Assembly: GCA_045837725.1 (NCBI GenBank)
Contig: JBEWZL010000076.1
Location: 1 to 64,000, forward strand
Length of the DNA stretch: 64,000 nt
From: Vermamoeba vermiformis
Taxonomy: Eukaryota
Direction of reading: 5' to 3'
Of this stretch, positions 1 to 59,282 are shown piece after piece. The notes under the pieces were generated by a model. That model was not told the DNA's origin. It did no database searches and saw only the letters and a program-made list of their open reading frames with translations. A program made the position numbers and the translations under genes. Numbering within the stretch: the first letter of the stretch is position 1; each line of letters opens with the position of its first letter.

Positions 1-9
1 TTGCGTTGT

Positions 10-2300
10 ACTTACCTTTTGCGATAGACGAATTATATTAACTCCAGACGGATCGAGTCTCAATCCGCGCCTATTCGTGCAATCAGCTCCGTGAGCAAAT
101 CTGAGTTATAGAATTGTTAATAATTCATATATATAACGCGTTATACTTACCTTTGGAGCACTCGATGCGCTTCATTAAAAGTTGAATCGCTGCTGGATCG
201 CGGATTCGTAGCCCTCAAAGGTTTCTTCAAGGGTCAATTAGACCGTATCTGTAATTATAACGCGTTAGTAATACTGTATTAATATCGATCTATAGTATTG
301 ATATGGCGAACTTACCCTTCTATATAAATTTTTTATCGCATGAAGATCGCGATCTAGATCCGTTCTGGGTTTTTCTTAAGACTTAAATAATCAATATTAA
401 AACATCACATATTTATTGAATAACTATAGAAAAGCACTTACATGTCAAGAGAACTTGTCCTGTCACGGATCGAGTGTTCGAATCCACGTATCCGGTCTGC
501 GTCCGCTCCTTTTGAGTAATAACCTGTAAATTTATGATTACTAAAATATATTAACGATAAAATAACCAGTTATTTAACTTTGGTTCAAGCGCTGTGTTGC
601 AACGACGCTGAATATCGTTGGGCGCGTGTATAATATACACAGTGAACTAAATACTATTAATAATTCGACCCTTGTGGTCGATCTGATGCGAATCTAAGTT
701 CGCATCACTTCAAATCAAAATAACTCGCGCTGAACGCCGTTGTGGCCGTGGCGCGTAACTATAGCTGTTAATAAGCGATGAACAATAAATATAACGACCC
801 TTGTGGTCGATCTGTCAAAGTTTTTACTAAAAATAACGGCTCCAGATCTTTGTGATTCCCACCCGTAATTAAATTAATTAGCATTTATTATTATGTACAC
901 AATTTTATCTTTTCGCTCGTGGATGCGTTCTAAATGCAATAACAGTCAGATCTGCAACTTGTCCACTAAGTCGGTCTCGTGCTATCAAACTATAATAAAA
1001 AAGATATCAATATTATATATGATAGAGTTGTACGCTTTGAACTTACTTTCGGCGCAATTGATGCGCAGCGTTAGCAGATCGAGTGCCACGAGCGAGCCGA
1101 TCTCATCCTTTTAAATCCTAAATAAGAATAATTATTAATATTGGCGTTTATTTTAAATTTTTAAGCATTGTACTTACTTTCGACACAATCGATGCGTCAC
1201 TGAAGTTTCTGAGAGATCGGGATGTCGCGACCTGATCTCTGGCCCCCGCTCTGTGTAATCTCTTTGATGTAAAATTAGTATAAATAAGTTAATATATAAA
1301 CATATAAGAGATATCACTTACCTTTAAGGCAATCGATGCCCTACATTGATATTTTAGCGGATCGAGACGCGTTGGATCCCGATCTCGTAAATGTTCAACA
1401 GAAGTCTCCTTCGCCATTTCTATGGAGATAATGCGTTAGTGATGGATGGTCTCTATATGTATATGTACTTACCGGTGCATCACAAGCAATGTAATGGATC
1501 TAATAACATTCGAGAGGATCGCGTTCGAGATCCGTCCCGTGTAACTTTTAACGCCTAAATAAATAGCTTTAGAATATTAAATAGCAATAATATAATAAAT
1601 TTAAACTACTTACGCTTGAAGAATTAGCGGGGACTGAGCGATCGACTTCGCGAACGATCCGCACATCACGTCTGCGCAGACGACACTGAAATAACCTATA
1701 AACTAACGATTATTATATTGTATTGATAATATGATAAGCAATGATTTAAACTTTGCACGAGCACGAAGCTCGATCTAATTTGAAAAAATTTAACTTGATT
1801 TTTAAATGATTAATCGACGCATTGGAATGATTATTTTATCACTATTGAATATATTTAAATACTTACTGAATTATTTCGAGGCTCTGGGCGGATTCAATCT
1901 CGCCATCAAGGTACCGACCCCATCGGCGAGCAATAGTCATCGTTCCTGCACCGGGGCACGAACGAAAGGCACCAGTGTATAATAAAACGACATTGGTGGT
2001 CAGGATCTCGCGCATCGAAAGTAACTGGAACTTTCGATCGCGTTAAAAATTTGTGATCTCTATCTAAATTAAAAATTACGCGTTAGCATATTATATGTAG
2101 TATATTTTTATCGATATTCATTAAAAATCCGGATAAAATCCGAGCACTTGGCTCGATCCGGATCAGTAGAAAATTTAAAAATTGATTTTACGACAAAATA
2201 ATATTGTCCATGGTGGAAGTATATATATAAAAATCTTACCTTGAATTATCTCGGTCTCTGCACCGAGATTCGCACAAGTCTTGATCTCGCGCATTGTCTC
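10..2300 (-). ncRNA. Putative multi-exon non-coding transcript built of repeated ~70-100-nt hairpin exons (continues off the left edge; may begin as far right as ~4100)
   Basis: Minus-strand GTAAG(T) donors at + positions 15, 150, 315, 441, 1046, 1177, 1321, 1472, 1613, 1866 and 2239. Most pair with branch-like TAAC/TAAT plus YAG acceptors, e.g. intron 150->101 GTAAGT...TATTAAC...TCAG and intron 315->249. Exons share GATC...GATC stems and (+)CAATCGATGC-like motifs. The exon joins I tested hit stops. Confidence 0.55.
601..815. repeat. Bipartite hairpin repeat block 1 (ACGACGCTG or ACTCGCGCTGAAC hairpin + A-rich spacer + CGACC-CTTGT-GGTCG-ATCTG), 2 units
   Basis: CGACCCTTGTGGTCGATCTG at ~666 and ~795; perfect hairpin TGATGCGAA-TCTAAG-TTCGCATCA at 684-707. 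Confidence 0.9.
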
Positions 2301-2307
2301 GCGCTGT

Positions 2308-2690
2308 AACGACGCTGATTGTCGTTTGGTGCGTGTGCACTAACAATAAATTAACAATCTAAGTAACCAGATCGACCCTTGTGGCCGATCTGTTGCGAAT
2401 CTTGGATTGATACTGTCAATCCTCGAAATAACTCGCGCTGAACGGCCGTCGTGGCCGTGGCGCGCAACTATATGCTGTTAATAAGCGATGAACAATAAAT
2501 ATAACGACCTTTGTGGTCGTTCTGTTGAATTACTGATGCGAAATAGCCCGTGCGCCATTTTCGCATCAGCTCCGAACCTCGAAAGAACTCGCGCTGAACG
2601 GCTCTGATGCCGTGGCGCGTTACTGTCATCTGTAAATGTGCAATATAATACTAAATATTAAATAAACCGACCCTTGTGGTCGATCTGTAT
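2308..2690. repeat. Bipartite hairpin repeat block 2, 3 units
   Basis: CGACC(C/T)TTGTGG(T/C)CG at ~2373, ~2505 and ~2668; ACTCGCGCTGAACGG...GTGGCGCG at ~2431 and ~2587. Confidence 0.9.
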
Positions 2691-2759
2691 CAGTTGTTAA
2701 AAATAAAGTCCAAAAACTGATGCGTGCGATTTTGACTTTCCCTAAATAAGACATTTTAC

Positions 2760-3734
2760 GCTAAAACTCCAGCGGAGCCTAAATTTTGGCCAATATAGCT
2801 CAAATCCATCATAATATGTACAATATAATTTATAATACACCATAATATCATAACAATAAGATATTAGTGGTATTTTATGAGGTGTTGATCTGCAGCAGTA
2901 GATCTGGTTTTATTATTACATTACAAGGGTTTACTATGAAGTCACCATCACGGTGAACACTTTCTCCATCACGGAGATCATACTGCCATCGCGGCAGGAT
3001 AACACCATCACAGTGTAGTCAAAGCCATCACGGCTGTAGGTGCACCGGGTGGTGGTGTCTTTTGCCATCACAGCAATGTTATCACCATCACGGTGAGGTT
3101 GTGGCCATCACGGCAATATATATGTTGAATGAGTTTGATGCCATCACGGCAAGTTAATCGCCATCACAACGAAGTTAACGCCATCACGGCAAATTGATCA
3201 GATATAGATCCGCTGCTATCATCAAAATAATGATTCTACAAGTTTTGTAATAACCTAATATCACTGTGTGCACGTGCTTACATCATCATCAATCGCTGAA
3301 ATTTCGGCAGACACGGATCGTGCACGATCTATTTGAAATAATTATTTTCACTTCTAAATATATTAATTTCAAGTAAATATATCATATATATATTTATATT
3401 AAATTATTTAATGTTTCAGGCGATTTTTCAAACAAGTCTAAGTCAAATCTAAATCCAGCCAAATATTCAGCTTTGTTATATTACCGAATTTACCTCTCTA
3501 ATTACTTGTACTAATATATATGTATATAAATCGATGTTTTTGCTGGGCTGATGATGATACTATGGTGTTCTTGTGCAGATCTTGTGCAATCTGACAGATT
3601 CGCCAAAAACATATCTTCTAGTCGCCGGAAAGTTGTATAAACAGTACCATATTATGGTACTATACTCTAATATAATATATACTACTATAATTCTATATTA
3701 TTGTGCCTAAAGTAGGCTCCGCTGGAGTTTTAGC
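2760..3734. mobile_element. 975-bp segment bounded by perfect 22-bp inverted repeats (MITE-like or long-range stem)
   Basis: GCTAAAACTCCAGCGGAGCCTA at 2760-2781 is the exact reverse complement of TAGGCTCCGCTGGAGTTTTAGC at 3713-3734. No ORF inside and no clear target-site duplication. Confidence 0.5.
2942..3190. repeat. Array of 11 short stem-loops with conserved ATCAC (minus strand GTGAT) pentaloop, ~20-bp period
   Basis: tcacc-ATCAC-ggtga, tctcc-ATCAC-ggaga, ctgcc-ATCGC-ggcag, acacc-ATCAC-agtgt, agcc-ATCAC-ggct, ttgcc-ATCAC-agcaa, tcacc-ATCAC-ggtga, gcc-ATCAC-ggc, tgcc-ATCAC-ggca, cgcc-ATCAC-aacg, gcc-ATCAC-ggc. Confidence 0.92.
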
Positions 3735-3747
3735 ATAATTGATCTTA

Positions 3748-4010
3748 AATAACTCGCGCTGAAACGACGTTGGCGTCGTGGCACGTCACTAACAGGTGCT
3801 AATAATCAATACTGAAGAATAATTCGACCCTTGTGGTCGATCTGATGGCTTACTGAATCTGTATACGAAATAACCCGGCCATTTTTGCATCAGCTCAGAG
3901 CTGAAATAACTCGCGCTGAAACGGCTGTGATGCCGCCGCGTGTTTCTGTCAGCGTAAATGAGCAATACAGTACCAAAAAAATAAATAAACCGACTTGCGG
4001 TCGATCTGTT
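3748..4010. repeat. Bipartite hairpin repeat block 3, 2 units
   Basis: AATAACTCGCGCTGAAACG at ~3748 and ~3905; CGACCCTTGTGGTCGATCTG at ~3825; variant CGACTTGCGGTCGATCTG at ~3991. Confidence 0.9.
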
Positions 4011-4299
4011 TATTTGAAATCGATAACCCTTGCTTGCTGCTGTCAGCCAAACTAATAAATAATTGAGTTGTTATGCAATAAACAAATAAAGAGCATTAAC
4101 ATTATAAATAATTGACGGTTGTGCTCGATCTGTCCGCGAGAGAAAACTACAAGTAACGGTCACTGCCTGATTTGGTAAAATCGACATTCGTCGACCGCAC
4201 GTGAGCATCGACACTCGTCGACTGGTACACGTGTCTGCCAAAAATTGCCGTTCTGTGTTGGGAAATAACCTGGCACAGCCACAGAAAAAGTGCGTGCAC

Positions 4300-6220
4300 G
4301 CACAAAACTCACAAACACAACACCGTAACAATACAACCACAACCACGAGCTGGCCAGTAAGAATAATTTGCTAGTTTATTTATTGCTGGCTTCGTCACGA
4401 CGTGCTTGGTATTGCGCGACCCTGCACTAGTGCTACTAATTATGCTCTGCCCTGCAAGTGCAATAATCATTCGTGGTAAGTAGGCTTGATAGTATTTAAT
4501 TTATAAAATAGATTATTTTACAGTTATCTATTTATTAATTTTCTTTTCAGGTAAAGCCGATCAACAACGCACCTGTTGTTTTACGCGAAGAAATTGCCAC
4601 CTTCGCTGAGAATGTTACTGGTAAAATCTAGAATGTAAGTAATGGGCTGTTTATCAACCTGCATTTTTAATTACATTAAAACTAATTTCAATCTCAGATA
4701 CGGCAGATTTTGACGAGACAACGGGTCTGTCTCCTGGCATCGGATTGCTGCGTCTTTGAGCAGTACAGAAGTAATGGGGGATGCGAACACCGGTAAAATA
4801 AGTGGTAAGTGATATTTAATACTAGTTTATTTTTAAAAATCAAATGCGCGGCATCTCACCTTTTTTGTTCTCGCAGCTCTCCTGGCTCGAACGCGTGTGC
4901 ACTATTTTTCAACAACGTTTCACAGCAAAGGCAGCCTTGCCAATGTTTGAGTAAGTACTCTCTGAATTTAAATCGAGTTAACTAATCCGATCTTCAGTTC
5001 TTCCAACAGCTGCGTGGCACACCGTCCAGTTATTGGACGGTCCCTTCAGTGCATGGCTCGCACGGTCCAAGCCTTGCTTGGCTCAAACCGTCCAAATTCT
5101 GGACGCTTTTTTTAGCGTGGCTCGCACCGTTCCCTCTGCTCTCAGTGTGCCACCGTCCAGTTATTGGACGGTGCCCTCCGCGCCGTGCCTCAGCTCGACA
5201 CCGTCCGGTTATTGGACAGTGCCCTCTGCGCCGTGCCTCAGCTCGACACCGTCCTGTTATTGGACGGTCCCAGTGCATGGCTTAAACCGTCCAAGACTTG
5301 GACGCTTTATCGGACGATCCCTTCAGTGCGTGGCTCGCACCGTCCAAATTCTGGACGCTTTCTCAGCGTGGCTCGCACTGTCCCCTCTGCCCTCAGTGTG
5401 CCACCGTCCAGTTGTTGGACGGTTCCCTCTGAACCATGCCTTAGCTCGACACCGTCCAGTTATTGGACGGTCCCCTCTGTGCCGCACTCTCACGTGACTC
5501 CGTCCAGTTATTGGACGGTCCCTTCAGTGCATGGCTCGCACGGTCCAAGTCTTGCTTGGCTCAAACCGTCCAAAGTCTGGATGCTTTTTTTAGCGTGGCT
5601 CGCATGCCTCACTGCCACCGTCCAGTTATTGGACGGTTCCCTCTGCAGCTGCCTTTTGTGTGACATTCCCTCCGTGCTGTCCCTTCAGCGTGCCACCGTC
5701 CAGTTATTGGACGGTTCCCTCGGTGCGTGGCTCAAACCGTCCAAATCTTGGACGCTTTTTCAGCAAATGGCTGACCGTCCAAGTCTTGGACGCTTCATTG
5801 GTGCGTTGTTGACACCGACCAGTTATTGGACGCTTAATTGGACAATCTCTTCAGTGCGTGGCTCGCACCATCCAGTTATTGGACGGCCACTTCAGTGCAT
5901 GGCTTGCACCATCCAGTTATTGGACGGTTCCCTCTGTGGCTGCCTTCTGTGTGACATCCCCTCCGTGCCGTCCCTTCAGCGTGCCACCATCCAGTTATTG
6001 GACGGTTCCCTCGGTGCTGTGCCTCAGCTCAGTGTGGCTCACACCGTCCAGAACCTGGACGCTTGGCTGGTGCTGCATGGCTTGGTGAGTAGATTGCACC
6101 ATCCAAGACTTGGATGCTTTGTTGGTGGCTTGCACTGTCCAGGACCTGTGCACCTTCTTGGCTGGAGCTCACACTTTGTATGCCAAGGTCCTGGACAGTC
6201 AATTGTAAAATAAAGTTTAG
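4300..6220 (+). ncRNA. Putative spliced, polyadenylated non-coding transcript whose last exon is the palindrome array
   Basis: Canonical introns 4476-4550, 4635-4697, 4805-4876 and 4951-4997 (GTAAGT...branch-like site...CAG), possibly also 4357-4458. AATAAA at 6209-6214 directly after the array. The spliced frames I tested contain stops. Confidence 0.5.
5021..6200. repeat. Array of ~23 palindromic units (ACCGTCCA-GTTAT-TGGACGGT and CCGTCCAA-N4-TGGACGC) with repetitive spacers
   Basis: About 13 GTTAT-loop copies (5021, ~5152, ~5200, ~5247, ~5403, ~5451, ~5500, ~5617, ~5695, ~5814, ~5867, ~5908, ~5985) interleaved with about 10 AA(ATT/GAC/GTC/ATC)-type copies. Confidence 0.95.
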
Positions 6221-6253
6221 TTTTTACAAACAGCTCCTTTATTGGGTTTGCAA

Positions 6254-6438
6254 GGGGGTGTACAGCATGCTGTACAGGGGTGCGATGGGTGTACAGCATG
6301 CCGTACGGGGGTGCGAGGGGGCGTACAGCGTGCCGTACGGGGGTGCGAAGGGGTGTTCAGCGTGCCGTACAGGGGCATCAAGGGGTGTACAGCATGCTGT
6401 ACGGGGGTGCGAGTGGGTGTACAGTGTGCTGTACGGGG
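6254..6438. repeat. G-rich ~31-bp tandem repeat x6 containing palindrome GTACAGCATGCTGTAC
   Basis: Unit GGGGTGTACAGCATGCTGTAC(A/G)GGGGTGCGA; runs of G3-G5 give G-quadruplex potential. Confidence 0.95.
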
Positions 6439-6584
6439 AAAAAATCCTAGCCCCAGCCCCAAATCCTATAAAATATGACATTAAAAAAACAGCTATAGAA
6501 ACTTTGTAGCTACTTTTTACAATATTTTATTTTTAACCCTCTCACCCCCAAACCCTAAAGCTATATTAATCATCGCATTCAATC

Positions 6585-7500
6585 TGATTCTCATCATGGA
6601 CACGACACCAACATTTACGCGTGCAAAAAGATCATGCATTTGAAGCTGATTCTCATTTAAACCATGACGCCAAGATTAGCACGTGCAACTGGAAGCATAA
6701 AGAATGCAGTTGTAGCTCTTCTCTCTATAACAACGACGCCAATTCAACGCGCGTGCAATTAGAACGCACTTTTGATATCAATTACACTATACCCACGACG
6801 CTTGTTTTAAGCACGCGCACTGAGGATGAAACATGCTCAATCATTATGTTTCAGTGTATTTAAAGCACCCGTGTACCAATGAACAGGCATTGATTACCTC
6901 AACACTCTATTTCATTATAAGCACGACGCTAGCATTAATACACACGTAAATCATACATTTCTATTATAACCACGACGCTAACATTTAGCGTACACGTGAA
7001 ACAGGGATACTCATCATGTTTCAACAGATTTAAAGCATTCGTGTACCATTGAACTGACACTGACACCATCAACTCTGATTCTCATTATTACCACGACGCC
7101 CATGTTTACGCGCGCGAATAACACTTGATTCTCTTATTAACCACGACGCTCGCTTTCGATAAGCGTCCGTGAAGCAGACATTATGCTTCTATTCATTTAA
7201 AGCACGCGTTACCAGTGAACTTGCATTGATATCTCAACAATGAAATCTCATCTTTGATTCTCATTATAACCATGACGCTCACATAGAGCGTACGCGTAGA
7301 AACAGGACATTCTTCATGTTTCGACGTGTTTAAAGCACATGTGCGAGTAACTAGCATGGATTACGATACCAATGATGAAGCAGGACACCCTTCATGCTTC
7401 TATTCAATTAAAGGATCCATGTACCAGTTAACCATCATTGATTCCATCTTCAAAATGAAATTTCATTTTCATTTCTCCTCTTTTCTTCTTTCATTCTATT
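6585..7500. repeat. Degenerate repeat family (TTCTCATTATAACCACGACGCT...ACGCGTG) with a higher-order unit (CATGTTTCA...TTTAAAGCA...GTACCA)
   Basis: ACGACGC/ATGACGC-like core at ~6601, 6663, 6732, 6794, 6922, 6971, 7092, 7142 and 7271, mostly after TATAAC-like sequence; TTTAAAGCA at ~6859, 7029, 7196 and 7329. Confidence 0.8.
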
Positions 7501-7504
7501 ATGC

Positions 7505-7735
7505 AACGACGCTGATTGTCGCAGGGCGCGTGTTTACTATCAATAATAACAATAACAATAATAATAACTCGACCCTTGTGGTCGATCTGATGCAAATCTA
7601 AGTTCACATCTAATTTTCAATTCCACAGCCAAAATAGCTCGTGCTGAACATCTTCTGTTGCGTGACGAGTTACTTGCATATTGTAACTAGAATAAATAAA
7701 TAAGAAAAAATAATTCCTCACTTTGTGGTTGAGTT
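7505..7735. repeat. Bipartite hairpin repeat block 4, 2 units (second degenerate)
   Basis: AACGACGCTGATTGTCG at 7505; CGACCCTTGTGGTCGATCTGATGCAAATCTAAGTTCACATC at 7570, nearly identical to 666-706; CTCACTTTGTGGTTGAG at ~7717. Confidence 0.85.
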
Positions 7736-8300
7736 TATTACATCATTTCTTTGCAAAAACAGATTTACTCCGATCTCCGCGAGAGACCGTTCGTTCTGTT
7801 TGATAAACCCTGTGCACGAGTGTTAACTGTCAAAATTAATTACACCACAAGGCGACTCGTGGTCAAAATCCCGCAAATCAACAGCAAAAAAAAGGTTATT
7901 CGTTAATGTCCTGCGGTGACTTTCAAAAATTTCAAATCAGATTTGGGCGGGAGGGTAAATTATCAGCAACGCGAGCAGCTACAGCAATGCCGTCTCGTGC
8001 GCTGCGACTAACATAATTACAGAGAAATTGTGGTAGCTACCTTTGCGCAAGATAAACGATTTAATTTTGATTTGGATCAGCTGAAGTAAAATAATTGGTG
8101 ACCATTGCCAGTGCAAACACGAGCACTGTTACATATGAAACTGTCTTTCGTGCTTGTTTGGTGCGTTTTGATGACAAAAATAACGCATGATTGTAACTAC
8201 GAGTCTCGCTCGTGTCGTCACTAGTTACGAGTTATGGCTCCAATAGATCACGCCTGCCCACTAAATTGTAAGTTATTTTGATTGTTTTTTGTTGTAAGTT

Positions 8301-8770
8301 CATGACCAGTGCGGTCACGAAGTTTTTCAAGTTTGAATTTTTTTACATCGTCTCCCTGTGGAGACGACCTCAAGGGACTTTAATTTTTCTTAGTTCGTGA
8401 CCAGTGCGGTCACGAAGTGGGACTTAGTTTTTTTGTTACATCGGCCTTGCAGGACTTTAATTTTTTTTAACATCGTCTCCCTGTGGAGACGACCTCTGTA
8501 GGACTTAGTTTTTTTAGACATCGTCTCCTCGTGGAGACGACCTCTATCGGACTTAGTTTTTTCAGACATCATCTCCCCGTGGAGACGACCTCCAATGACG
8601 TGACATCAATTTTCTTAGCTCGTGACCACTGTGGTCACGAAGTTTTAAACTTTGGTTTTTTTACATCGTCTCCCTGTGGAGACAACCTTGAAAGACTTAA
8701 ATTTACATCATTTCCTGCTAGAGACAACTGTAAAGGACTTTAATTTCAGTTGTGACCATTGTGGTCATAG
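8301..8770. repeat. Mixed hairpin array: CGTCTCC-CTGT-GGAGACG (x5) and GTGACC-A(G/C/T)TG(C/T)-GGTCAC (x4) separated by T-tracts
   Basis: CGTCTCC-type at 8349, 8474, 8522, ~8570 and 8667; GTGACC-type at ~8302, 8397, 8622 and 8752. Confidence 0.9.
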
Positions 8771-8894
8771 TTTTGCCCTTACCAGTACAGTTGTTGTTTT
8801 ATTCTAACTTGTTATATTGTAAAATGAATAAACTCTTTCAACATTTAATCTCTCTGGTGTGTAATTACTCTTGTCAGCCCTCAACTCTAATTAA

Positions 8895-9185
8895 CTCTTG
8901 GCGACTCTAGTTAGTGCTCGGCTAGTCTTGTTAGTGCTCGGTGACTCTCATTAGTGCTTGGCGACTCTCGCTAGTGCTCGGCAACTCTCGTTAGCGCTCG
9001 GCGACTCCCATTAGCGCTTGGCGACTCCCATTAGTGTGCAGCGACTCTCGTTAGCACTTGGTGACTTGTTAGCGCTCAGCAACTCTCGCTACTCAGCGAC
9101 TCCTGTTAGCTCGCGGTGACTCTCGTTAGCACTCGGCGACTCTCGTTAGTGCTCAGCAACTCTCGTTAGCACTCTACAACTCTTG
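8895..9185. repeat. 20-bp tandem minisatellite, consensus GGCGACTCTCGTTAG(C/T)GCTC, ~14 copies
   Basis: Directly visible 20-nt periodicity. Confidence 0.95.
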
Positions 9186-10033
9186 CTCACACTTGTGCAA
9201 TTGCTCAATGTTGAACTCTTGGTTGAAAAACTGCCAGAAAAGTTGACTTTACGAAACTTTTTGGATAATTTTTAGGGCTAGCCCTGTTTGGCCAAGCCCT
9301 GTAGTATATATGAATATATTAAACCAAATCTTTTGTCAGGATTAGAAATCCTCCCAAAAAATCTCAAGGGAGGATTTTACTGGTAGGCATTTTTCTCAGT
9401 TCAGTAGTATCAAGTATTAAAATTATTTATATACTAATGACCAGCAATGTTTATTCTATAATATCAATAGTTTTGACACTAATTGGCAAGTGTTTTAATT
9501 TTTATCCAACTGCCAAATATGGCAATGCAGGATCAAAGAATAAAAACCTTTAAAGTTAGGAATTCTTTAATTTATTGTATTCTGTTGAGAGTAGGCCTCA
9601 CTACCATTTGTATCATATTGTTATTCATTTCCTGAGATCCTAAACACAAAAATTTTCACCTTATTTAGTTACCTATGCATCAGATATCTATAAACAGACT
9701 GCTTTATGCATTGGCAATGTGATTGATTATTGGCTTTTGTTGGAGTACATTCTTAGAACTTTCTCATCCCAAATCTGCACCCAAACCTCTCAAAAAGTTG
9801 GTAACATATCAATACTTATCCTTTTGCTGAACATTTAGGAGAGTCTTAAACCTTTTTGTACCAAATCCAAAGCCTTAATCACTGGTTAAAACTCTAATGT
9901 ATCAAACAGATAGCTTTCAATGAAAGCAAGGTGATTATTAAACTCTGCTGGAAGTGGAAATCTTGCAGGCCAATGCAACACTGACAGACAACCAATCAAG
10001 GATCTGATGTAACAAGCAAATACAGACTTTTAT

Positions 10034-11928
10034 CTAAACAGTCTCCTCAAGTTTGTTCAAAAGTGGTTGATCACTGCTGTTGTGCTCACTGTCATCTTGA
10101 ACGTGCTGTCTTGCAGTTGGCTCAGGTAATGTTCCTACTGTCACTCGTTGCATGTGTGTTGTGCATGCTACTCTCTGCACGGAACCAACCCTGTCAAAGT
10201 GTCATTAGCTTGTCAATAGGTTATGCAACAAGCTTATTACTTACAATTCAAAGAGTGTATATCCGAACACGAGGGCCATGACCATTATGAGAAACTGTAG
10301 CGTGGTTTCCCTAGGGAGGCTGTCAGTTAGTACGAACAGAAGCTGTTACAAGGGCACATACATTCGGTGAGTGAATCCCAATAACATAACGATGGTGCCA
10401 ATAGCAATTCTTAAGGGTAGTCGAACTTTCGTTGGTATGACAAAATTGTTGTAATTTTGCGACAAGAAGCCCATGAGACCCATGCTGATCATCACCACAC
10501 CCACACCACCGGAAATCATCCACTGCGCAATGTACGGATGTTCATCATGCTTTTCATTGATCGTGTGCTACGCGAAAATTAGTAACTAGAATTACAGCAC
10601 GACAACGATACTTGCCTCAAGGAGCAACAGTCCAGACGACGCAAAACAGATGCCCAACATTAGTGGCAAGTGACAAAACATCCACAAAATGTAGCCGTAG
10701 CGACTCCTGCGGATAGCGTGCAATGCCTTTGGTGCACCTTCGATGTCAAAGTAAGTCCACTTCAATGCGAAGGCGATGAACAACGGGATGAAAGCACCAC
10801 TAAGAGATTGAACTCAGTCAGTCTAACACACTACACAATTGTTATGATACGCACAGATATCCCGAAAGATCGTGATTCTCCGAGGCGGCTAACAGCGCTA
10901 CAACCATCATGCCCAACAGTAACATAATGAACACCCCCACGCGTTCAATGTAGTGTTCGATGTTGAGCGGTGCTGCATATGGCACGTTGACCGAAAGGAA
11001 AATGATCAACTCTTCTGCGATCAGACTGACAGCCCAACACACGTAGCCGTACTCGGGGAATATCAGTGAACAGCACCAAGGCACGATGAGCAGAGTGTTC
11101 AGTAATGCCATGTACTGACCGACAATGTTAACTGGACTGATCTGCTTCATTATTCATACGTACCAAAGCATTTTGCCATCGCTTGCCCTCGCAATAGGCA
11201 GTGTACATATACATTATTATGAGCAACAATTTCGCTGCGAGATACGACAAAGTGAATCCGACAGAAGGTGATTCTTGTGCGTCGTGTAAATTGATTCCCA
11301 TTCCCACCCAAACATTAGAATTAACATTATGCAATAGAGTAAAACCTTCACTTCGTGCTACTTACAACGGCTGTCATTTGTAACAGATAGTAAATTTTGT
11401 GGATCTATTTCGGGAGTTAGAATCGCGACGGTTCTGTGTTGAAACTTACTATATCATCGGTGTCGTATCGAGTGCTGTACATTGTAGTTGCAGCCCAAAC
11501 ACGCCACACAGCGCCGAAAAGTAGAATGAAAATGTGGATGTGGTCCGAATTCTCGCTCAGAAAATGAACTTAGAATGAAAATTAATTCTTTGGACGTAAA
11601 TATGTGATGGCTAATAGCTAAGTTACCTACCCAAATGTTCGATAAGCACAACGTAAATCAGATCGTAAAATAATTCTGTCCAGGATATTTTTCGCGTGTC
11701 TCTTTCTCGTATTAACACCCTCTTGTTAATTTCTGAATCAAATACGAAATATTGCCGCAGTCGAGGAAACTCTAAGCAAAATGAAATTAGTAAAATTAAA
11801 ATCAACTTTTGCCGGCGGTTGAACATCAATTTAATTATATCGGCCATAAAATAATTCATACCGAGGTTATATTAATTTTACTAAATACTTACTAACGAAT
11901 CCATAGAAACATGACCGTGAACTGTCAT
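10034..11928 (-). CDS. Low-temperature-requirement protein A (LtrA)-family membrane protein, multi-exon (5' end approximate)
   Basis: Exon peptides RKISWTELFYDLIYV, HYIERVGVFIMLLLG and WMFCHLPLMLGI match LtrA motifs; multiple TM segments; stop TAG at 10034-10036 after splicing. Confidence 0.75.
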
Positions 11929-12153
11929 CAACGCTGTATTTAATTAAATGGTGCGCTCCAAAATGATGCTCCGTTATGTGAGCCTATTAATATTATCTAG
12001 GTGTCATTAAGCAACTTGGAAAAATAATAGAGGGTTAAAGTCGCTTTCAGACCGTATGCGAATTGACAATCGGGCAGCACAATTTCTACTTACATCTGGA
12101 TTATGATGACTCATGCTATTAACAATTGAATCATATTATTTTATAACCGATTT

Positions 12154-13336
12154 TTATTGTTTCGAAGGTTTGCGGCCGAAATGGAACGCCATCGGGGTGA
12201 AAATCTTCAATTTGCCGCCGAGATAAAGACCTTCTTGACCTCGCAACAGCATTCTTTGCACGCCTACGGTGCCCTTAGGAGCCAATCCGATTTTTTCGGC
12301 AATCGACAGTCCGACATCCAGAACCTTCTGACCAACTGGAGTCATTTGCCAATTGCTCATGGTGTATTTTGGCGTTAAGGGATCTTCCCAAGGAACCTGG
12401 GACTCTTCAGCGATATCTCGGACTTCCACGTCAAAAAATCCTGCTTCTTTCATTGCCACCGCTACGTCGTTAATGTGCGCAATGTCGGGCAATCCGGATC
12501 CTTCTTCGATAGCCTTCTTAACGTACTTGTGATGCGCATTGCTTGGCTCGTACTAACGTGCATATTAGAGCTGCGAAGAGTGTAAAAAAAAGACCAGTGA
12601 CGAACTTACCTTCTTAGTAAAAGTCCATTCGTACCCACAGAACACACCACCAGGCTTCAGCACTCGAAAAGCTTCAGAATAGACTCCAAGCTTACTAGGT
12701 GCATGAGCTGTAGCCTCGACTTCGTAGACAATATCGAAAGTATTGTCTTCGAACGGCATCTTCATAAAATCACCCTAGAAATTGTAAGCAAGCTGGTAAC
12801 TTTGCGAAGTGCGAATCGCTCTTACTTCGACAACAGTAAGGAGATGAGAAAGCCCTGCTTTTTCGTTGAGCTCCCTGGCTCGCTTGACTTGATAAGCATT
12901 CAAATTTAGGCCTGTTATACTCGCACCTACAAATAGGTTAGCTTGGACCACCATTGCAAACGAACGTAGACTTACCAGTAAATTTGGCGATGTTTCGCAT
13001 CGGACCTCCAATGCCGCATCCAACATCAAGCACTTTCATGCCTTCCTTCATGTGCGCTCGGAGGGCCAAATACAACTCGTGGCGTTTCAATGCATCGCCG
13101 TATGCTTCGCCCCTGAATTGCTTGGCAAAATGAAAGTGCTCGCCCCAAGCCTTCTCGTAGAAGTCAGTCGCAAGATCGTAGTAATTAACGACGACATCTT
13201 GGTAGTTTTTGTTGCGCTCGTCTGTCGTGTGCTTCTGGTCGTCATGAAGATCGCGATATTTGGTCACTGCATCGGCGACATTAGCGTGTTGTTTCTGATT
13301 ACCGTAGCTGCTTGGAACGGAGACTAATTTGGCCAT
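12154..13336 (-). CDS. SMT1: Sterol 24-C-methyltransferase (SAM-dependent), 4 exons
   Basis: [54 protein letters not shown] and the C-terminal KIFTPM motifs. Confidence 0.95.
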
Positions 13337-13762
13337 TTGAGTCTGTTGACAGAATAAGATTAGTGGTGATTGTCCAGCGAAGCTGAAGCGCAATTAAAGC
13401 TGAGTTTCATCGGGGTATTTGTATCGGTTGCGGTGGTGGTCAGAGTCTGACCAAGCTGTTCCGCATAGCTCCCCAGTACTTCGCTCTTGTGCGAGGGAAC
13501 TATGAGGGACTATGCGGATTTTATCTTTGTTACGGGCCTTACGGACTACCAGAACAATTTCATTGGAGTAGCTGAGCCACTTCATCCATTAGTATCCGAG
13601 AGCGGCACCCTCTGTAGCCAAAAAGTAGCTAGAGCCATCGTGTTGATAATGTCGCGACGTCAAATCAAGCGGTTATGTCATCTCTCCGCTACAACGAATA
13701 CTTCCGGAAACAAACAAATGCAAGTCACGTAATAAAGCGCAAAATATTTACAAACCGTAAGG

Positions 13763-16999: not shown

Positions 17000-17511
17000 T
17001 GCTGCTATTCCACAACAATAAGATCACGATCGATGGCCAGTTTGCGTGAGTTGCGTTTGCGTTCGTATACTTTAATTACAGTGACTGTTGTTTTGTATTA
17101 TACCAAGGACCTTCGTGTTTTTAACAGTGAAAACAAAAAATATCGAAAACACGAAAGAGGGACAAATTTCTATCGGTCCGATTTCAGAAACGAAGCGCAA
17201 TACGTTCACAAGTATATATGCAACATAAATATTAACATTTTTGTATTTGTGTATGGTGTCGATACGAACGCGAGTAATTGGCAATTTCAAGGAAGACTCA
17301 GCTGGATTTCACGCGCAGAAAAATGCGGTGCAGAAATTACAATCGCAAAATCCTCTCCGTTCATTTTTATTTCAAAAAAGACAATAATTTGAACTACCAC
17401 GAATCATGATTGAAATGCAATTTAGTTGAAGGTAAAGCTTGGCGAATCTACTTTATTTCGTGCTCAAGTACTCATTAACAATTGTTAATAATACGGATTA
17501 ATTTAGCAACC

Positions 17512-20500
17512 ATGGGCGAATATATAAAAGAAGACGAAGAAAATGATTGGCATCTGCTTGCGCAAGTTGGCGGATGGTATTGGATGGTGTCAGAAAATAT
17601 TTTCAGATGCACGGAACAAGCTGGAAGAATATATGACTTACAAGCGCCTGATTTGAGCATAACTAAATTCGCTGATTATTGCGTTCCGAAAGACAGAGAA
17701 GTGTTCAGTGAATTTGTTGAGCGGATCATTACCTTCAATGCGCGAGCCGGTCCTCTTAACAAGTCGCAAACCGATGACCACACGTCAATATTTATCAACG
17801 ACGATTCTTCATTCGAGTTTGAATACCGAATTCAATTAGGATCGAAAATAAAATGGATTCATTGCCGAGGAATAATCGAAGTAGTTGACGCCGAAACGAA
17901 GAGGAAAGCCACTTTAGTATCAAACAATGTCGTAGTCACACGCGTAAAAGCCTCAATTCAAGACATTTCCAAAGTGAAACCAAATCTGGATGAAGAGATC
18001 AAACGCAAAAATGAAGAATTGCGCCAAAGTGAAGAAGATTTTCAAGTGCTGGTTGAAGCCATGCCTCAAATGGTTTGGTCAACGACTGTAGAAGGTCGTG
18101 CCAACTACTTCAATAGCAGATGGCACGAATACTGCGGAACTACTTTTGATCAGACTCGAGGCTTTGGCTGGATCATGTCTATACATCCCGACGACGTAGA
18201 GAGCACGCTAAAAGTTTGGAACTATTCGGTTAAGACAGGTGCGTAGATGTGTTTTTGACCTTTTTTGGGCAATGGCTCACCAAATTGCAAAGCCGAATTT
18301 ACAAGCCAAAATTCAAACTGAAATTAATTGCAATCATCTCGGCGGTTAGATTGATACTAATTTCAAGGAATAAATTTTCTTAATACCCGTTTTCATGTTA
18401 AATCAATAAAAACGTACACGCCTAAAAATTTCGCTTTGTAGGCGAGGTTTTTGACTTCAAACATCGCCTAAGGAGGGCCAAAGACGGCCAGTATCGATGG
18501 CACTTAGTGCGTGGAATACCTGTGCGTGGGCCTGATGGAAATATTAAGAAATGGCTCGGTACGTCAACTGACATCCACGATCAGGTATGGAGCCCTTGAC
18601 TAGCCCCAATAGCTTAGCAAATTAATTAATTTAAATCACAGCACGAAGCGGAGGAAAAGGCCAGAGCCTCCGAGCTGTATCTCAGTGGAATCATTCAGCA
18701 CTTTCCCGTTTTGGTAATCGTTCTGAATCGCAACGGTGTATTCACCCTTGCCGACGGCCATGGCTTATCCGTACTTGGCTATGATTCGTCATCATTCCTT
18801 GGAAAGTCCGCCGTTGAAGTAATGTCTTCTCTCGGCAAGCCAGAATATATTGAGTAAGTGATCTTGTTGCAATCAATGAAAATGAACTAACCTTTTGGTA
18901 GATATTTTGAAAGAGGTCTGCGAGGAGAACAATTATCGGTGGAAATGGAGTTTAACAATCACATCCTCGATTGCCACTTTGCCCCATTCAATTTTGATCA
19001 GTCACCGGACAACTCAGGCCTAGTAATTGTTGGCAAAGATATCACCATTAGAAAAGAGGCAGCAAGATTGGCAATTAGTGAGGCTAGTGCACGCGAAGCC
19101 GCAAGGTTAAAAAGCGAATTTTTAGCAACAATGAGCCACGAGATTCGCACACCTCTAAACGGGATTATCGGTACGTGGAAGTAGCATATATTTGACCCGT
19201 TATTGGGTTTCATGATTCAGTTTCGCATTACGTTAGATTGCCAAACCAAAAATTACCATATAACGACTCAACTAATTCTCCGAACACAGGCATGTCAGAA
19301 TTGCTGTCCGACACTACGCTATCCGACGAACAGCGCCGTTATTTAGATATCATTCAAACGAGCAGCTCCAATCTCTTGATGTTAGTGAACGACATTTTAG
19401 ATCTGTCGAAAATGGATGCTGGAAAAGTCGAGCTGGAGAAGACCGAATTTACGATACGCCAGTTTGTTAACAGACAGCTAGATATATTTTCAATTAGTCT
19501 CAAGAACAAATCGCTCAAGCTCAATATAGAGATTGATGAAAAAATCGACCACACAATTTTCGAAGGTGACGAGGGTCGTATTGGTCAAATATTAGTCAAC
19601 CTCATCTCCAACGCGATCAAATTCACGCCACCAAATGGAGAGATATCGTTGAGCGTTCTGCAAGCTTTCAAAAGACGTTTGCCTGTGTCGAATGAAAGCA
19701 CGCCAGTCTCGTCACCCAAGGCAGGTGTGAAAACTGGAGGCTCTCAAGAAATGGAGTCTTTGTCCGAAGCCTCACGAGATATGACCGGCCCCATGGACGT
19801 CATGTTCGTCGTCACCGATTCAGGCATTGGAATTCCTTTGGAGGCCCAGCGCAAGCTTTTCCAACCGTTCATTCAGGCAAACAACTCAACAAGGCGCAAG
19901 TACGGCGGTACTGGTCTCGGCTTGTCTATTTGCAAGAAATTGGTGAAGCTTATGCGCGGTGAAATTGGCGTGGAGAGTGAAGACAACAAAGGCGCCACAT
20001 TCTGGTTCACTATTCCGCTGCTTCCAATGTCGCCTTGCAACTCGCCCGCTACTGACACGCGAGACCGTTCTTTCAGTGAAAGCAGCGCAAGGGTAAGTGC
20101 ACCACTCTGGTTTTTTTTACTTACTGACTTGCTGTACTTCAGAGCAAACTGACGTCCTCGTCGCATCAACCACTACTCGATTTGTTTGAAATGCGCAAGA
20201 AGTTCATCAAGTCATTCTCGTTCACTCAGAGATCTCTCGTCAATCGCAAAGTTATTTCAAAGCCACGCATCTTAGTCGTTGAAGATCATCCAGTTAATCA
20301 AGCTCTCATGGTAGCGACCCTGCGTAAGCTAGGTTGTGAAGTGGAAGTCGCCAATGATGGACAAGAAGCTGTAGATGCCTGGACTGCAGACGACAGTACG
20401 TTTGATCTGGTATTCATGGACTGCTACATGCCCGGTCTCGACGGTTACACGGCTACAAGAATCATTCGGGAGAAAGAAATTAACAACAACTACGGTCGAA

Positions 20501-20691
20501 CATCATTTTCAAAGCTCACGGGCTCAGGCTGCGACCACATTCCGATCATTGCCGTGACTGCCAATGCTTTGAGCGGAGATCGCGAGAAGTGCTTTGAGGC
20601 AGGCATGAGCGACTACTTGCCCAAGCCTATTACAAAGAACTCCATCATTAGCATCATGAAGAAGTGGCTGCCCAACGCGACTATTGATTAG
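17512..20691 (+). CDS. Hybrid sensor histidine kinase (PAS/PAC - HisKA - HATPase - receiver)
   Basis: [12 protein letters not shown]...IHPDD; H-box [22 protein letters not shown]-box [15 protein letters not shown]1 DSGIG; G2 GGTGLGLSI; receiver VVEDHPVN...FMDCYMP...YLPKP. Confidence 0.96.
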
Positions 20692-56909: not shown

Positions 56910-59282
56910 TTAGTTCTCGCTATCCTCCTCGCTGTCAGCTAAATAATAAGACGACATTAGCACTCGTAAATTTTAGCCCAGATCTGATCCAGTTCAACTT
57001 ACATTCAGAGCTAGAGCTGCTCTTCTCCTTAGCCTCCTCGTCCTTCTTCTCTTCGACGGGGGCCTCTTCTTCCTTCTTTTCTTCTTCTTTCTTCTCTTCA
57101 GCAACAGCAACTTCCGCTTGAACTTCAACTTTAGGGGCCTCTTCAACGGGTTTAGTCTCGACTTCAGCGGGCTTTTCTTCGGCCTTCACTTCGACATTGA
57201 CATTTGACTCGATTTTAGGGGCCTCAACAGCGACTTCTGTCTTGGTCTCGGCAGCAACAGGAGCTGATTCGTCGGTCTTAACTTCGACGCTGGCCTCGGC
57301 GGTGGGTGCCTTGACCTCAACATCGGCGCCTTTGTCTTTTTTGTCGCCTTGCTCTTCGTCCTCGCCAATCGTGGCCAAGCTAGCAGCAGACGCGAGTTCG
57401 TCTTTCTTTTCGCCCTTCTTGGCCTTGGCAGCCTCGTCTTTAGCCTTCTTCTCGTCCTCTTTGGACTTCCTCTTCTCCTCATCCTTGGCTTTCTTGTCCT
57501 CGGCCAACTTCTTCTTGGCCTCTTCCTTGGCTTTTTTCTCTTCCTCCTTGGCCTTCTTCTTCTCTTCTTCTTTGGCCTTCTTGTCCTCTTTAGTTGACTT
57601 CTTCAAGTCTGACTTGCTGTCTTTGCGTGCCTTTTTGACATCGTCGCTCATGTCGGCCTTGCTGCCGCGACGAGATCCAGATCCAGAGCCCTTCAGGTCG
57701 CTTGAGCTGCCGCGTTTCGAGCCCTTAAGCTCGTTCTTATCCTTCGAGCTTCTCAAGTCGCTCTTGCTGCCACGTCGTGCTTGGCTAGCACCAGCTGAGG
57801 CAGGTTGATTGAGCTTGCCTTCTAACGGTGTGCCTTTAGTTTTTTCAGCGACAATGTGGTCCACGCAAGCCTTGATGTCATCGAGCTGCACGATAGAAAT
57901 ATTAATGACTATTTCCTTATTAAGTAACAGAGGTTTTTCAACGTACTTCGCTAGACATGAATCTGAACATGGTGCAGCCAGGCGGCAATTTAGCCTTGTT
58001 GTCGGCTTTTTTCTCGCCAGATCCGTTAGGATCTTCCCAAACAAATCTGAACTCTTCCAAAGGAATATAGAACTTGAAGGTAGGAATGTTTTTCCATAAA
58101 TGGACGCTAGCTTGCTATAATAAGGAATAATTCGTCAGACCAATACCGAAAACAAATCAAGCAATATATCTCGTCAAATTACGACTATATTGCTGAAATT
58201 AAGTATATTGTCATATTTTGCGTAATATTGACCAATCTATATCATTAAAATAAAATCCGAAGCGGATCCATTGACGAAACGGAAACACGTTCGGAAATCT
58301 CGCTTCACATTTGTGTTTTTGCTTAGGAAATGCATAGTACTTACTTTAAAGCTATTACGAATGACATCGCAATCAATTTTCTCGGGCTGTTCAACGAAGG
58401 AAATGCCCTCGGTGTCCAAGTGCAAGACTAACTTTTTGTTCTTTGCACCTTTGTCGCTAGTAACGTGCTATAGTAATACAACAATGTTAGTATACGATGA
58501 ATAGGCGCTTTGATATTTTCAGTTTGTTTCCTAACCGAAATAATCGTCGCGAGGTCGATATCGTAAATTTAAAAATAATTCCCTTTATAGAAACAACTAA
58601 ACTAATAAAACGGAAGAAGGAGCAAATAATATATAAATTAAACAAATAAGCGAAAGATTCAATGATGTAATTTGCCGCATCTGAAATTAAATTGTTAAAA
58701 CACAAAAACGGCAAAATTGAGACACAAGTGTAAATGTTGGTCAAGTTTACCTTAACTAAGAAATAAGATGGCACTCCCTCACCATTGAGATCGCCTAAAT
58801 TGGTTAATTATTAATTTGCAAGCGAGATCGAGGTATAACGTACTAAGCAAACGTCTGTTTTTCTTCTTGGGATCAAGTAATTCTGAAAAAAAGTTCACGT
58901 TGGTACCCACGCCGGGGGATCCTCTAATACTAAATCTCTTGCTTGAGCGCTTGTTTTCTTTGGGCTTTTCTTCCTTGGGAGGTTTAGCAGGTTTCTCTGC
59001 TTTGGATTCGCTCTTCTCTTTCTTCTTATCCTTCTTTCCGTCCTTGCTCTCTGACTTAGACTCTTTATCGTCCTCTTTTTTCTCAGCAGAATTTTCTACT
59101 GGCGCTGCATCTGCGCTGCCAGCAGGTTCGGGTGTTGTCTTTTCAGATTGAGATTCGCTTTGCTTGACCTCGACTTCCTCTGCTTTCTTTTCAGACGCGT
59201 CCATATTTGAATCCGCAGTTTGTTCAGCTTGAGGTGCTGCTTGCTTTTCAGAACTGCTGCTGCTGCTCTCTTTGTCAGACAT
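56910..59282 (-). CDS. Hypothetical protein with a central PH/PTB-like globular domain between K/E-rich low-complexity regions
   Basis: Spliced domain KKLVLHLDTEGISFVE...HLWKNIPTFKF...TMFRFMSSELDDIKACVDHIV; KKAKEEE and EVK repeats. Confidence 0.65.

Follow-up and report, generated by a model that had tools for sequence, protein, structure and literature searches.

Positions 1-9300 of a 64,000-nucleotide (nt) stretch of Vermamoeba vermiformis DNA (assembly GCA_045837725.1, contig JBEWZL010000076.1, positions 1-64,000; hereafter the window) raise the question of what kind of locus is built from hairpin arrays and repeats beside genes. Outside this block the window carries ordinary, intron-bearing eukaryotic genes, which directly adjoin it, and there is a single such block in the 64 kb. 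The block extends past the window start, where the edge cuts through its leftmost array. We give an about even chance to the reading that it is a noncoding locus, built from repeats and specific to its lineage, with spliced transcripts that run divergently, of which we infer both the transcription and the splicing.

Coding capacity of the block

The initial annotation had called the block gene-free, and our analysis agrees: the block is noncoding. Pfam gave no family for its eight open reading frames (ORFs) of 80-349 amino acids, with one sub-threshold match (E 0.094), and no conserved frame open across exons, with a domain or homologues, was found in the block. The longest ORF (349 amino acids, 5164-6213) lies in the family D hairpin array (Table 1), where one DNA motif is read in all three frames, so that the same hairpin is rendered as TVQLLDG, PSSYWTVPS and HRPVIGR. 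It is open because the D repeat unit contains no stop codons. Only five relatives were found among 1.84 billion representatives, all of them ORFs on short NCBI contigs; at these five other loci the D array recurs as the same DNA, including a common non-repetitive 3' end, read in shifted frames. Exons 1-4 of the candidate transcription unit leading into this array (unit 1; Table 1) have stops in all frames, the longest ATG-initiated ORFs being 41 and 210 amino acids.

On the left minus strand, the best spliced ORF path under loose rules reached 351 nt, within the shuffled range of 198-525 nt, and the sterol methyltransferase gene, as positive control, gave 1080 nt. No phase is open across the units of the left array, and an ORF of 59 amino acids on the minus strand (1866-2042) has no homologue of near length. 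Among paralogous copies in the probable source DNA run, which has 75% of the window's words, indels of 1-2 nt fall within exon-like parts (7 of 11 among the indels listed for 1-2800). A coding gene, either for a repetitive protein from the D array or one of many exons to the left, could account for the 349-amino-acid open frame and for the ORFs that gene callers gave on the five related contigs. It is hard to reconcile with a motif read in three frames and relatives shifted in frame, with the lack of a Pfam family and the scarcity of relatives, and with upstream exons closed in all frames and a left path within chance. We regard a protein-coding gene as extremely improbable.

Splice signals and candidate transcription units

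Is the block then transcribed as noncoding RNA? Outward-facing splice signals had been noted in the initial annotation, and as a sequence pattern they are plainly present. GTAAGT occurs 10 times on the minus strand of 1-4300 and not once on the plus strand, and in 4300-9300 it occurs six times on the plus strand and not once on the minus strand, a strand switch near 4300. Introns in the flanking genes for the histidine kinase and the methyltransferase, which look verified, served as a reference; they are 48-55 nt long and contain GTAAGT, a CTAAC-like branch site and YAG. The candidate introns of the block are built in the same way (GTAAGT, 47-75 nt, CTAAC-like branch site, YAG).

To the right of the switch, four candidate introns follow one another in unit 1, each AT-rich and ending in a pyrimidine tract and CAG. 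Because these introns (4476-4997) lie in DNA of single-copy depth and their donors show no paralogy to the left units, the four donors are independent signals; by our own estimate, about 0.2 GTAAGT would be expected by chance in 700 nt of that composition. The fifth exon of this unit would be the family D array. To the left of the switch, six of the donors can be paired with a complete intron-like stretch of 50-67 nt. Each left unit has an exon-like part of ~60-200 nt, richer in GC and closed by a 5' splice-site motif, and then an AT-rich, intron-like spacer of 50-67 nt. The units fold near the shuffled mean (z scores on the plus strand from +0.46 to -2.40, 9 of 11 above -1), and a MAFFT alignment of the 11 units, at 38% mean column identity, was uninformative. 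In the region at the switch itself (4136-4300), a TCGACAYTCGTCGAC box with CACGTG behind it occurs twice in tandem, and a palindrome of 14 nt lies at 4291-4304, as read from the sequence; we consider this region a candidate bidirectional promoter.

On the reading of divergent transcription, the block would most likely hold RNA polymerase II-type spliced noncoding transcription units. A rightward unit would start at ~4300, pass through four short canonical introns and end in a 1.2-kb last exon formed by the D array, and a second rightward unit probably spans the G arrays. At least one leftward unit would run over 1-4300, with its ten GTAAGT donors and 50-67-nt spacers, and would include the family C array.

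The left units may also be read on the other strand, as plus-strand small-RNA genes that each start with ACTTACC after a TATA-like stretch. In 10 of the 11, ACTTAC does stand at the start on the plus strand, after AT-rich, TATA-like sequence, and ACTTACC is identical in letters to the 5' end of U1 small nuclear RNA (snRNA). U1 snRNA begins 5' ACUUACCU and has four stem-loops and an Sm site. When the left units were compared with such a gene, only the 5' motif was present: inspection by eye revealed nothing like an Sm site, and Rfam gave no match to U1, to spliced-leader RNA or to any other snRNA, even with the E limit relaxed to 5. The folding of the units does not exceed that of shuffled sequence, and they are too diverged for copies of one small RNA. 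This makes small-RNA genes very unlikely.

Hairpin arrays and compensatory change

How much of the hairpin content is more than chance was judged by counting perfect stems of at least 6 bp with loops of 3-9 nt, with 20 shuffles as control. In 1-9000 we found 62 hairpins versus 16.2 +/- 3.6 in shuffled sequence, an approximately fourfold excess of short GC-rich hairpins; in the remaining 55 kb there were 102 versus 88.6 +/- 10.3, mainly AT-rich and due to chance. The hairpin arrays are thus non-random, with sequence features far beyond chance. Tandem and dispersed repeat searches gave at least eight families (the left ACTTAC units, the A/B composite, C, D, E, F, G1/G2 and H), in line with the many repeat families and hairpins first reported. 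In motif searches allowing up to two mismatches, all families were confined to 1-9300 and to the plus orientation, except for chance matches of one 10-mer and for family E, which is palindromic.

The repeat families are without relatives in the libraries searched. A 20-letter pattern of family B matched five metagenome loci and one viral locus, each sharing only the 20-mer and lying on contigs of 44-66% GC, which is chance. Rfam 15 (snRNA, small nucleolar RNA (snoRNA), ribozymes, microRNA) gave no match at gathering score in the whole window; with E allowed to rise to 5 nothing was credible, mir-513 coming closest at 26.8 bits versus the 72.1 needed, and no transfer RNA (tRNA) genes were found there. 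Ribozymes (hammerhead or other), box C/D or H/ACA snoRNAs, iron-responsive-element-like loops and a tRNA-like box B were rejected, since their defining motifs are lacking by eye and Rfam gives no support. A cluster of small-RNA precursors, one of the ideas first offered for the block, also fits poorly: a Dicer-type precursor requires a stem of ~20 bp or more, and the stems of the hairpin families are 5-11 bp.

Family C shows true compensatory change. Its loop, read on the minus strand, is an invariant GUGAU, and three of its five stem pairs change on both sides. Covariation was 0.487 versus 0.163 +/- 0.05 in shuffles, none of the 500 shuffles being as high and slid controls giving 0.06-0.13; on the minus strand it rose to 0.647 versus 0.291 +/- 0.051, again with none of 500 shuffles as high. 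The minus strand is also the one on which more cells are paired (92.7% versus 83.6% on the plus strand), on which all four departures at the inner two pairs are U.G, and on which the array folds better (z -4.37 versus -2.16). In the GC-rich hairpins of 1-4300 as a whole, transition-type stem mismatches numbered 12 A.C versus 1 G.T on the plus strand, where A.C corresponds to G.U on the minus strand, compared with 17 versus 7 in 4300-9300 and 33 versus 36 in the rest of the window; these counts include repeated, non-independent copies and outer stem extensions. The A.C bias on the left agrees with the minus sense of the left donors, and a general excess of G>A over C>T is absent from the family alignments (40 versus 41). 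The best account is that family C, and perhaps the A/B unit, is constrained as a single strand, which for family C is the minus strand.

Compensatory change could be demonstrated for family C only, with qualitative evidence for the inner and second hairpins of A/B. In the alignment, the inner hairpin of the A element pairs in six of six copies via at least four different stems, and the hairpin between B and A occupies the same place in its copies with unrelated sequences and lengths. Two A/B units fold at z -3.03 (655-790) and -4.06 (2494-2660); a covariance model of the A/B unit (R1) scored the first at 145 bits and found nothing credible in the window outside 1-9300 (best E 0.22). Family B has near-invariant arms, and its covariation was matched by 101 of 500 shuffles. 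Family D covaries weakly (17 of 500 shuffles as high by score, 65 of 500 by percent paired), and its "compensated" copy is explicable by CpG decay in both arms. The arms of G1 are invariant, and pairs lost at CpGs are uncompensated. As arrays, D folds at z -5.9 on the plus and -5.6 on the minus strand and the G arrays (8268-8832) at -6.4 and -8.9; the G1/G2 arrays have T-rich spacers ending in YAG. Family F hairpins are variable in quality, their stems having been read by eye from the alignment.

The covarying stems that the initial annotation ascribed to most families therefore hold for family C and the variable hairpins of A/B, and not for B, D, G1, H or the left units. Of its wider interpretation, the noncoding character, the non-random arrays, the donor switch and family C stand, and what is weakened or unsupported is compensation in most families and the small-RNA precursors; the uniform orientation of the A/B units and the folding of D and G also weigh against it.

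The arrays probably arose by slippage, unequal exchange and segmental duplication. Most of them (B, D, G) would then decay neutrally at CpGs, as palindromic minisatellites, and family C and the A/B variable hairpins would retain pairing. Family C would form a minus-sense RNA hairpin array with an invariant GUGAU loop and, if bound, could be a multivalent site for one factor. It is possible to go further and propose a spliced long noncoding RNA (lncRNA) family whose exons are protein-binding hairpin arrays with a different loop in each, family C with its 11 GUGAU loops being a platform or decoy for one RNA-binding protein and A/B serving as boundary or processing elements. We think this quite unlikely.

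In family E, which lies beyond the D array, runs of 4-5 G flank a palindrome of 16 nt, so that the plus strand could form G-quadruplexes. Its array begins ~35 nt past the AATAAA that comes after the D array.

Table 1. Coordinates of features in the window
Feature	Position	Strand	Remarks
Left array, 11 diverged units	1-2300	minus	donor contexts, intron-like spacers
CTTAC motifs of left array	11, 146, 311, 437, 1042, 1173, 1317, 1468, 1609, 1862, 2235	plus	
Left intron-like matches	101-150, 249-315, 990-1046, 1118-1177, 1420-1472, 1555-1613	minus	
A/B composite copy	598-830	plus	hairpin X 600-620, B 665-681, variable hairpin 684-707, A 722-760, second B 794-810
A/B array	2305-4135	plus	three-hairpin units of ~130-165 nt; interrupted by 2747-3747
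Segment with inverted arms	2747-3747		splits A/B array, contains family C
Family C, 11 hairpins	2940-3195	minus	form NNCCATCACGGNN (plus strand); invariant loop, covarying outer stem
Central region at strand switch	4136-4300		single-copy depth; no similarity to left units
Candidate transcription unit 1	4300-6214	plus	exons ~4300-4475, 4551-4634, 4698-4804, 4877-4950, 4998-~6214; AATAAA 6209-6214
Candidate introns, unit 1	4476-4550, 4635-4697, 4805-4876, 4951-4997	plus	75, 63, 72, 47 nt; donors at 4476, 4635, 4805, 4951
Family D array, ~25 hairpins	5017-6206	plus	constant arms CCGTCCA / TGGACGG; two loop classes
Family E, six 32-nt units	6249-6438		GTACAGCATGCYGTAC palindrome between G runs; fold z -4.70
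Family F	6570-7480	plus	~170-nt higher-order units; CACGACGC-type and GAAACA-type hairpins
Third A/B composite copy	7502-7720	plus	model R1 133 bits
Candidate transcription unit 2	8268-8832	plus	GTAAGT at 8268 and 8294; G1/G2 arrays; AATAAA 8827-8832
Family G1 hairpin array	within 8268-8832	plus	CGTCTCC-CTGT-GGAGACG
Family G2 hairpin array	within 8268-8832	plus	TTCGTGACC-AGTGC-GGTCACGAA
Family H, ~14 copies of 20-nt unit	8884-9174	plus	not a hairpin; fold z +0.66
LtrA-like membrane protein	10346-11871	minus	multi-exon
Sterol methyltransferase	12154-13393	minus	
Hybrid histidine kinase	17479-20691	plus	
P450 and EI24-like protein genes	elsewhere in window		
Major vault protein	59983-62256	minus	family confirmed by protein atlas query

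Copy number, related systems and neighbouring genes

Depth in the probable source DNA run, given per bin, was 255-625 over the flanking genes and 335 at 4204-4670, about single copy. It was far higher over much of the block: 2353-7409 over 1-2800 (7-13 times single copy in the left array, up to 21 times at 2336-2802), 4785 in the family E bin at 6072-6538 (~14 times), 3414 in the family H bin at 8874-9340 (~10 times) and ~900-1300 over the D array, the depths of array bins being inflated by internal cross-mapping. The left units are too diverged for cross-mapping; therefore, near-identical copies of the left block must be present elsewhere in the genome. Contigs of the DNA run join the block's modules in other orders, and four of them enter the A/B composite at 598 from other flanks. 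The base differences listed among DNA-run copies of 1-2800 fall in AT-rich spacers in six of six cases.

These multi-copy modules keep a satellite or subtelomere reading open. The block would then be an untranscribed or incidentally transcribed satellite, a subtelomeric or pericentromeric minisatellite mosaic whose dyads are non-B DNA or palindromic protein-binding sites. GTAAGT would be merely part of a duplicated unit, and compensation would arise via template switching or gene conversion in quasi-palindromes. Such a mosaic would account for a block that is gene-free, tandem and multi-copy, with 7-21 times single-copy depth over 1-2800, 6072-6538 and 8874-9340 and modules joined in other orders, and that continues beyond the window start. 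It would also account for CpG-type decay without compensation and for arms of B, D and G that are constant while loops and spacers vary, as for dimer-binding sites. One report describes centromeric satellites as enriched in dyad symmetries of <10 bp (PMC5889037), and another describes template switching as creating and maintaining hairpins (PMC8794818); both favour this explanation.

However, a satellite does not explain four non-paralogous canonical introns in a row in the single-copy DNA of 4476-4997, nor donors that are strictly separated by strand. Nor would protein-binding palindromes or template switching lead one to expect that every departure in family C is a G.U pair on the same strand. 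No telomere-type repeat array was seen on reading 1-9600, and the block is the only one in 64 kb, with ordinary genes next to it. We hold a satellite, the main rival to divergent spliced transcripts, to be possible but somewhat unlikely.

Another explanation for the multi-copy modules is a graveyard of mobile or duplicated elements, with A/B as a non-autonomous dispersed element, 2747-3747 as a low-copy terminal-inverted-repeat element, and the left array and D-array unit as decayed copies of some gene or element that is present many times. The segment that splits the A/B array is indeed flanked by inverted arms of 49 nt (2747-2795 and 3699-3747; 78% complementary, and perfectly so over a core of 22 nt). 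In the window, three or more contexts contain the A/B composite, apart from the four DNA-run contigs that enter it at 598, and copies of the D array lie on five other short contigs. Of the features of a DNA transposon, however, 2747-3747 has the terminal inverted repeats and lacks a target-site duplication (none clear on reading the sequence), a transposase and many copies, its depth being 0.6-2 times single copy. No transposase, reverse transcriptase or any other Pfam domain occurs in the block, all families are in one orientation, and viral and metagenome contigs gave only the chance 20-mer matches. Such a graveyard appears decidedly unlikely.

The 2747-3747 segment, with 0.9 kb of single-copy DNA between its arms, could be a low-copy terminal-inverted-repeat element, or its arms could form a long-range RNA helix.

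Two known identities that the initial annotation had set against its own proposal, a known transposon and a ribosomal DNA spacer, were not found. No ribosomal RNA gene matched in the 64-kb window, so within it the adjacent genes that mark an intergenic spacer are lacking.

Is there RNA from the block? Three RNA runs carry the species label of the DNA run. Their reads match exons of the methyltransferase and LtrA-like genes (10275-13543) at 90-95% at best, show fixed differences there and mostly continue into sequence unlike the window. The three runs derive from a divergent relative and match the block in no more than a few conserved modules; noncoding DNA of the block is not expected to map. 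More than one species is probably filed under the label that the DNA and RNA runs share. In two of the RNA runs (X8 and X9), 10-18 reads each match, at >=90%, a GATC-type hairpin module of 33 nt at 1628-1660. The flanks of these reads are consistent among reads and unlike the window; therefore, one expressed locus of the divergent relative carries the module.

Several observations weigh against a locus with divergent spliced transcripts. Many modules stand at 7-21 times single-copy depth, as expected for satellite or subtelomeric DNA. RNA depth is zero over 2336-6071 and 6539-10274 and no RNA joints were listed, but this is uninformative, since the reads come from a relative that matches even exons at only 90-95%. 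The ten left donors belong to paralogous units and hence are non-independent. A loose whole-intron pattern is in modest excess, with 8 matches on the minus strand versus 2.8 +/- 1.7 in shuffles (maximum 9) and 3 on the plus strand versus 2.1 +/- 1.5 (maximum 7). AATAAA hexamers are frequent in AT-rich DNA and prove nothing. The A/B units keep a single orientation to the left and right of the strand switch, so that one transcript would carry them in antisense and the other in sense. In folding, neither the D nor the G arrays favour the plus strand; being equal or better on the minus strand, they therefore lend no support to plus-strand RNA structure on the right, and the arms of D and G1 decay without compensation. 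The mismatch counts, for their part, contain repeated copies and outer stem extensions.

Known systems resemble the block in part. The Xist A-repeat consists of GC-rich hairpins separated by U-rich linkers, and roX RNAs carry stem-loops. Like these lncRNAs, the block has spliced noncoding transcript models and tandem short GC-rich hairpins with AT/U-rich linkers, and in family C the loop is invariant and the stem variable. Unlike them, the block combines at least six unrelated hairpin families, most of its arrays are without structural constraint, many of its modules are multi-copy, and it belongs to a microbial eukaryote in which the transcripts are predicted. With snoRNA host genes it shares many short noncoding exons and short canonical introns, but Rfam finds no snoRNA in the introns, and spacers of 50-67 nt are too short for one. 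In human subtelomeres, 61-29-37-bp repeats upstream of TERRA are promoters of telomere-directed noncoding RNA. The block is similar in that several multi-copy tandem-repeat families lie side by side and it may be transcribed toward one end; it differs in the prominence of splicing signals and in that there are no telomeric repeats in the window.

With dyad-rich centromeric satellites, as reported (PMC5889037), the locus shares a gene-free block, tandem units with short dyads and multi-copy modules, but its arrays are only 0.2-1.2 kb, it includes intron-like structures of canonical form, and stretches of single-copy DNA separate the arrays. Template switching (PMC8794818) explains perfect short inverted repeats and two-arm changes without selection; it predicts neither the one-strand G.U bias of family C nor its invariant loop.

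Should the transcripts prove real, the locus would be a compact, sequence-defined case, from a microbial eukaryote, of lncRNA genes built from repeats, and family C, with an invariant loop, covarying stems and one-strand wobble pairs, would be an unusually clean test case. If it is a satellite, it would be a small, fully sequenced mosaic of dyad-symmetric minisatellites in which neutral CpG decay occurs beside structure-preserving change.

Among the genes of the window (Table 1), the one directly adjoining the repeat block encodes an LtrA protein (PF06772, "bacterial low temperature requirement A") in a eukaryotic, intron-bearing setting. For the major vault protein at the other end, relatives that are 97% identical occur on public JGI contigs (427-471 kb), which could supply an orthologous repeat locus. 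Finally, 56935-58134 on the minus strand holds a 399-amino-acid open frame of low complexity, rich in lysine, glutamate and alanine, where open frames overlap on both strands.

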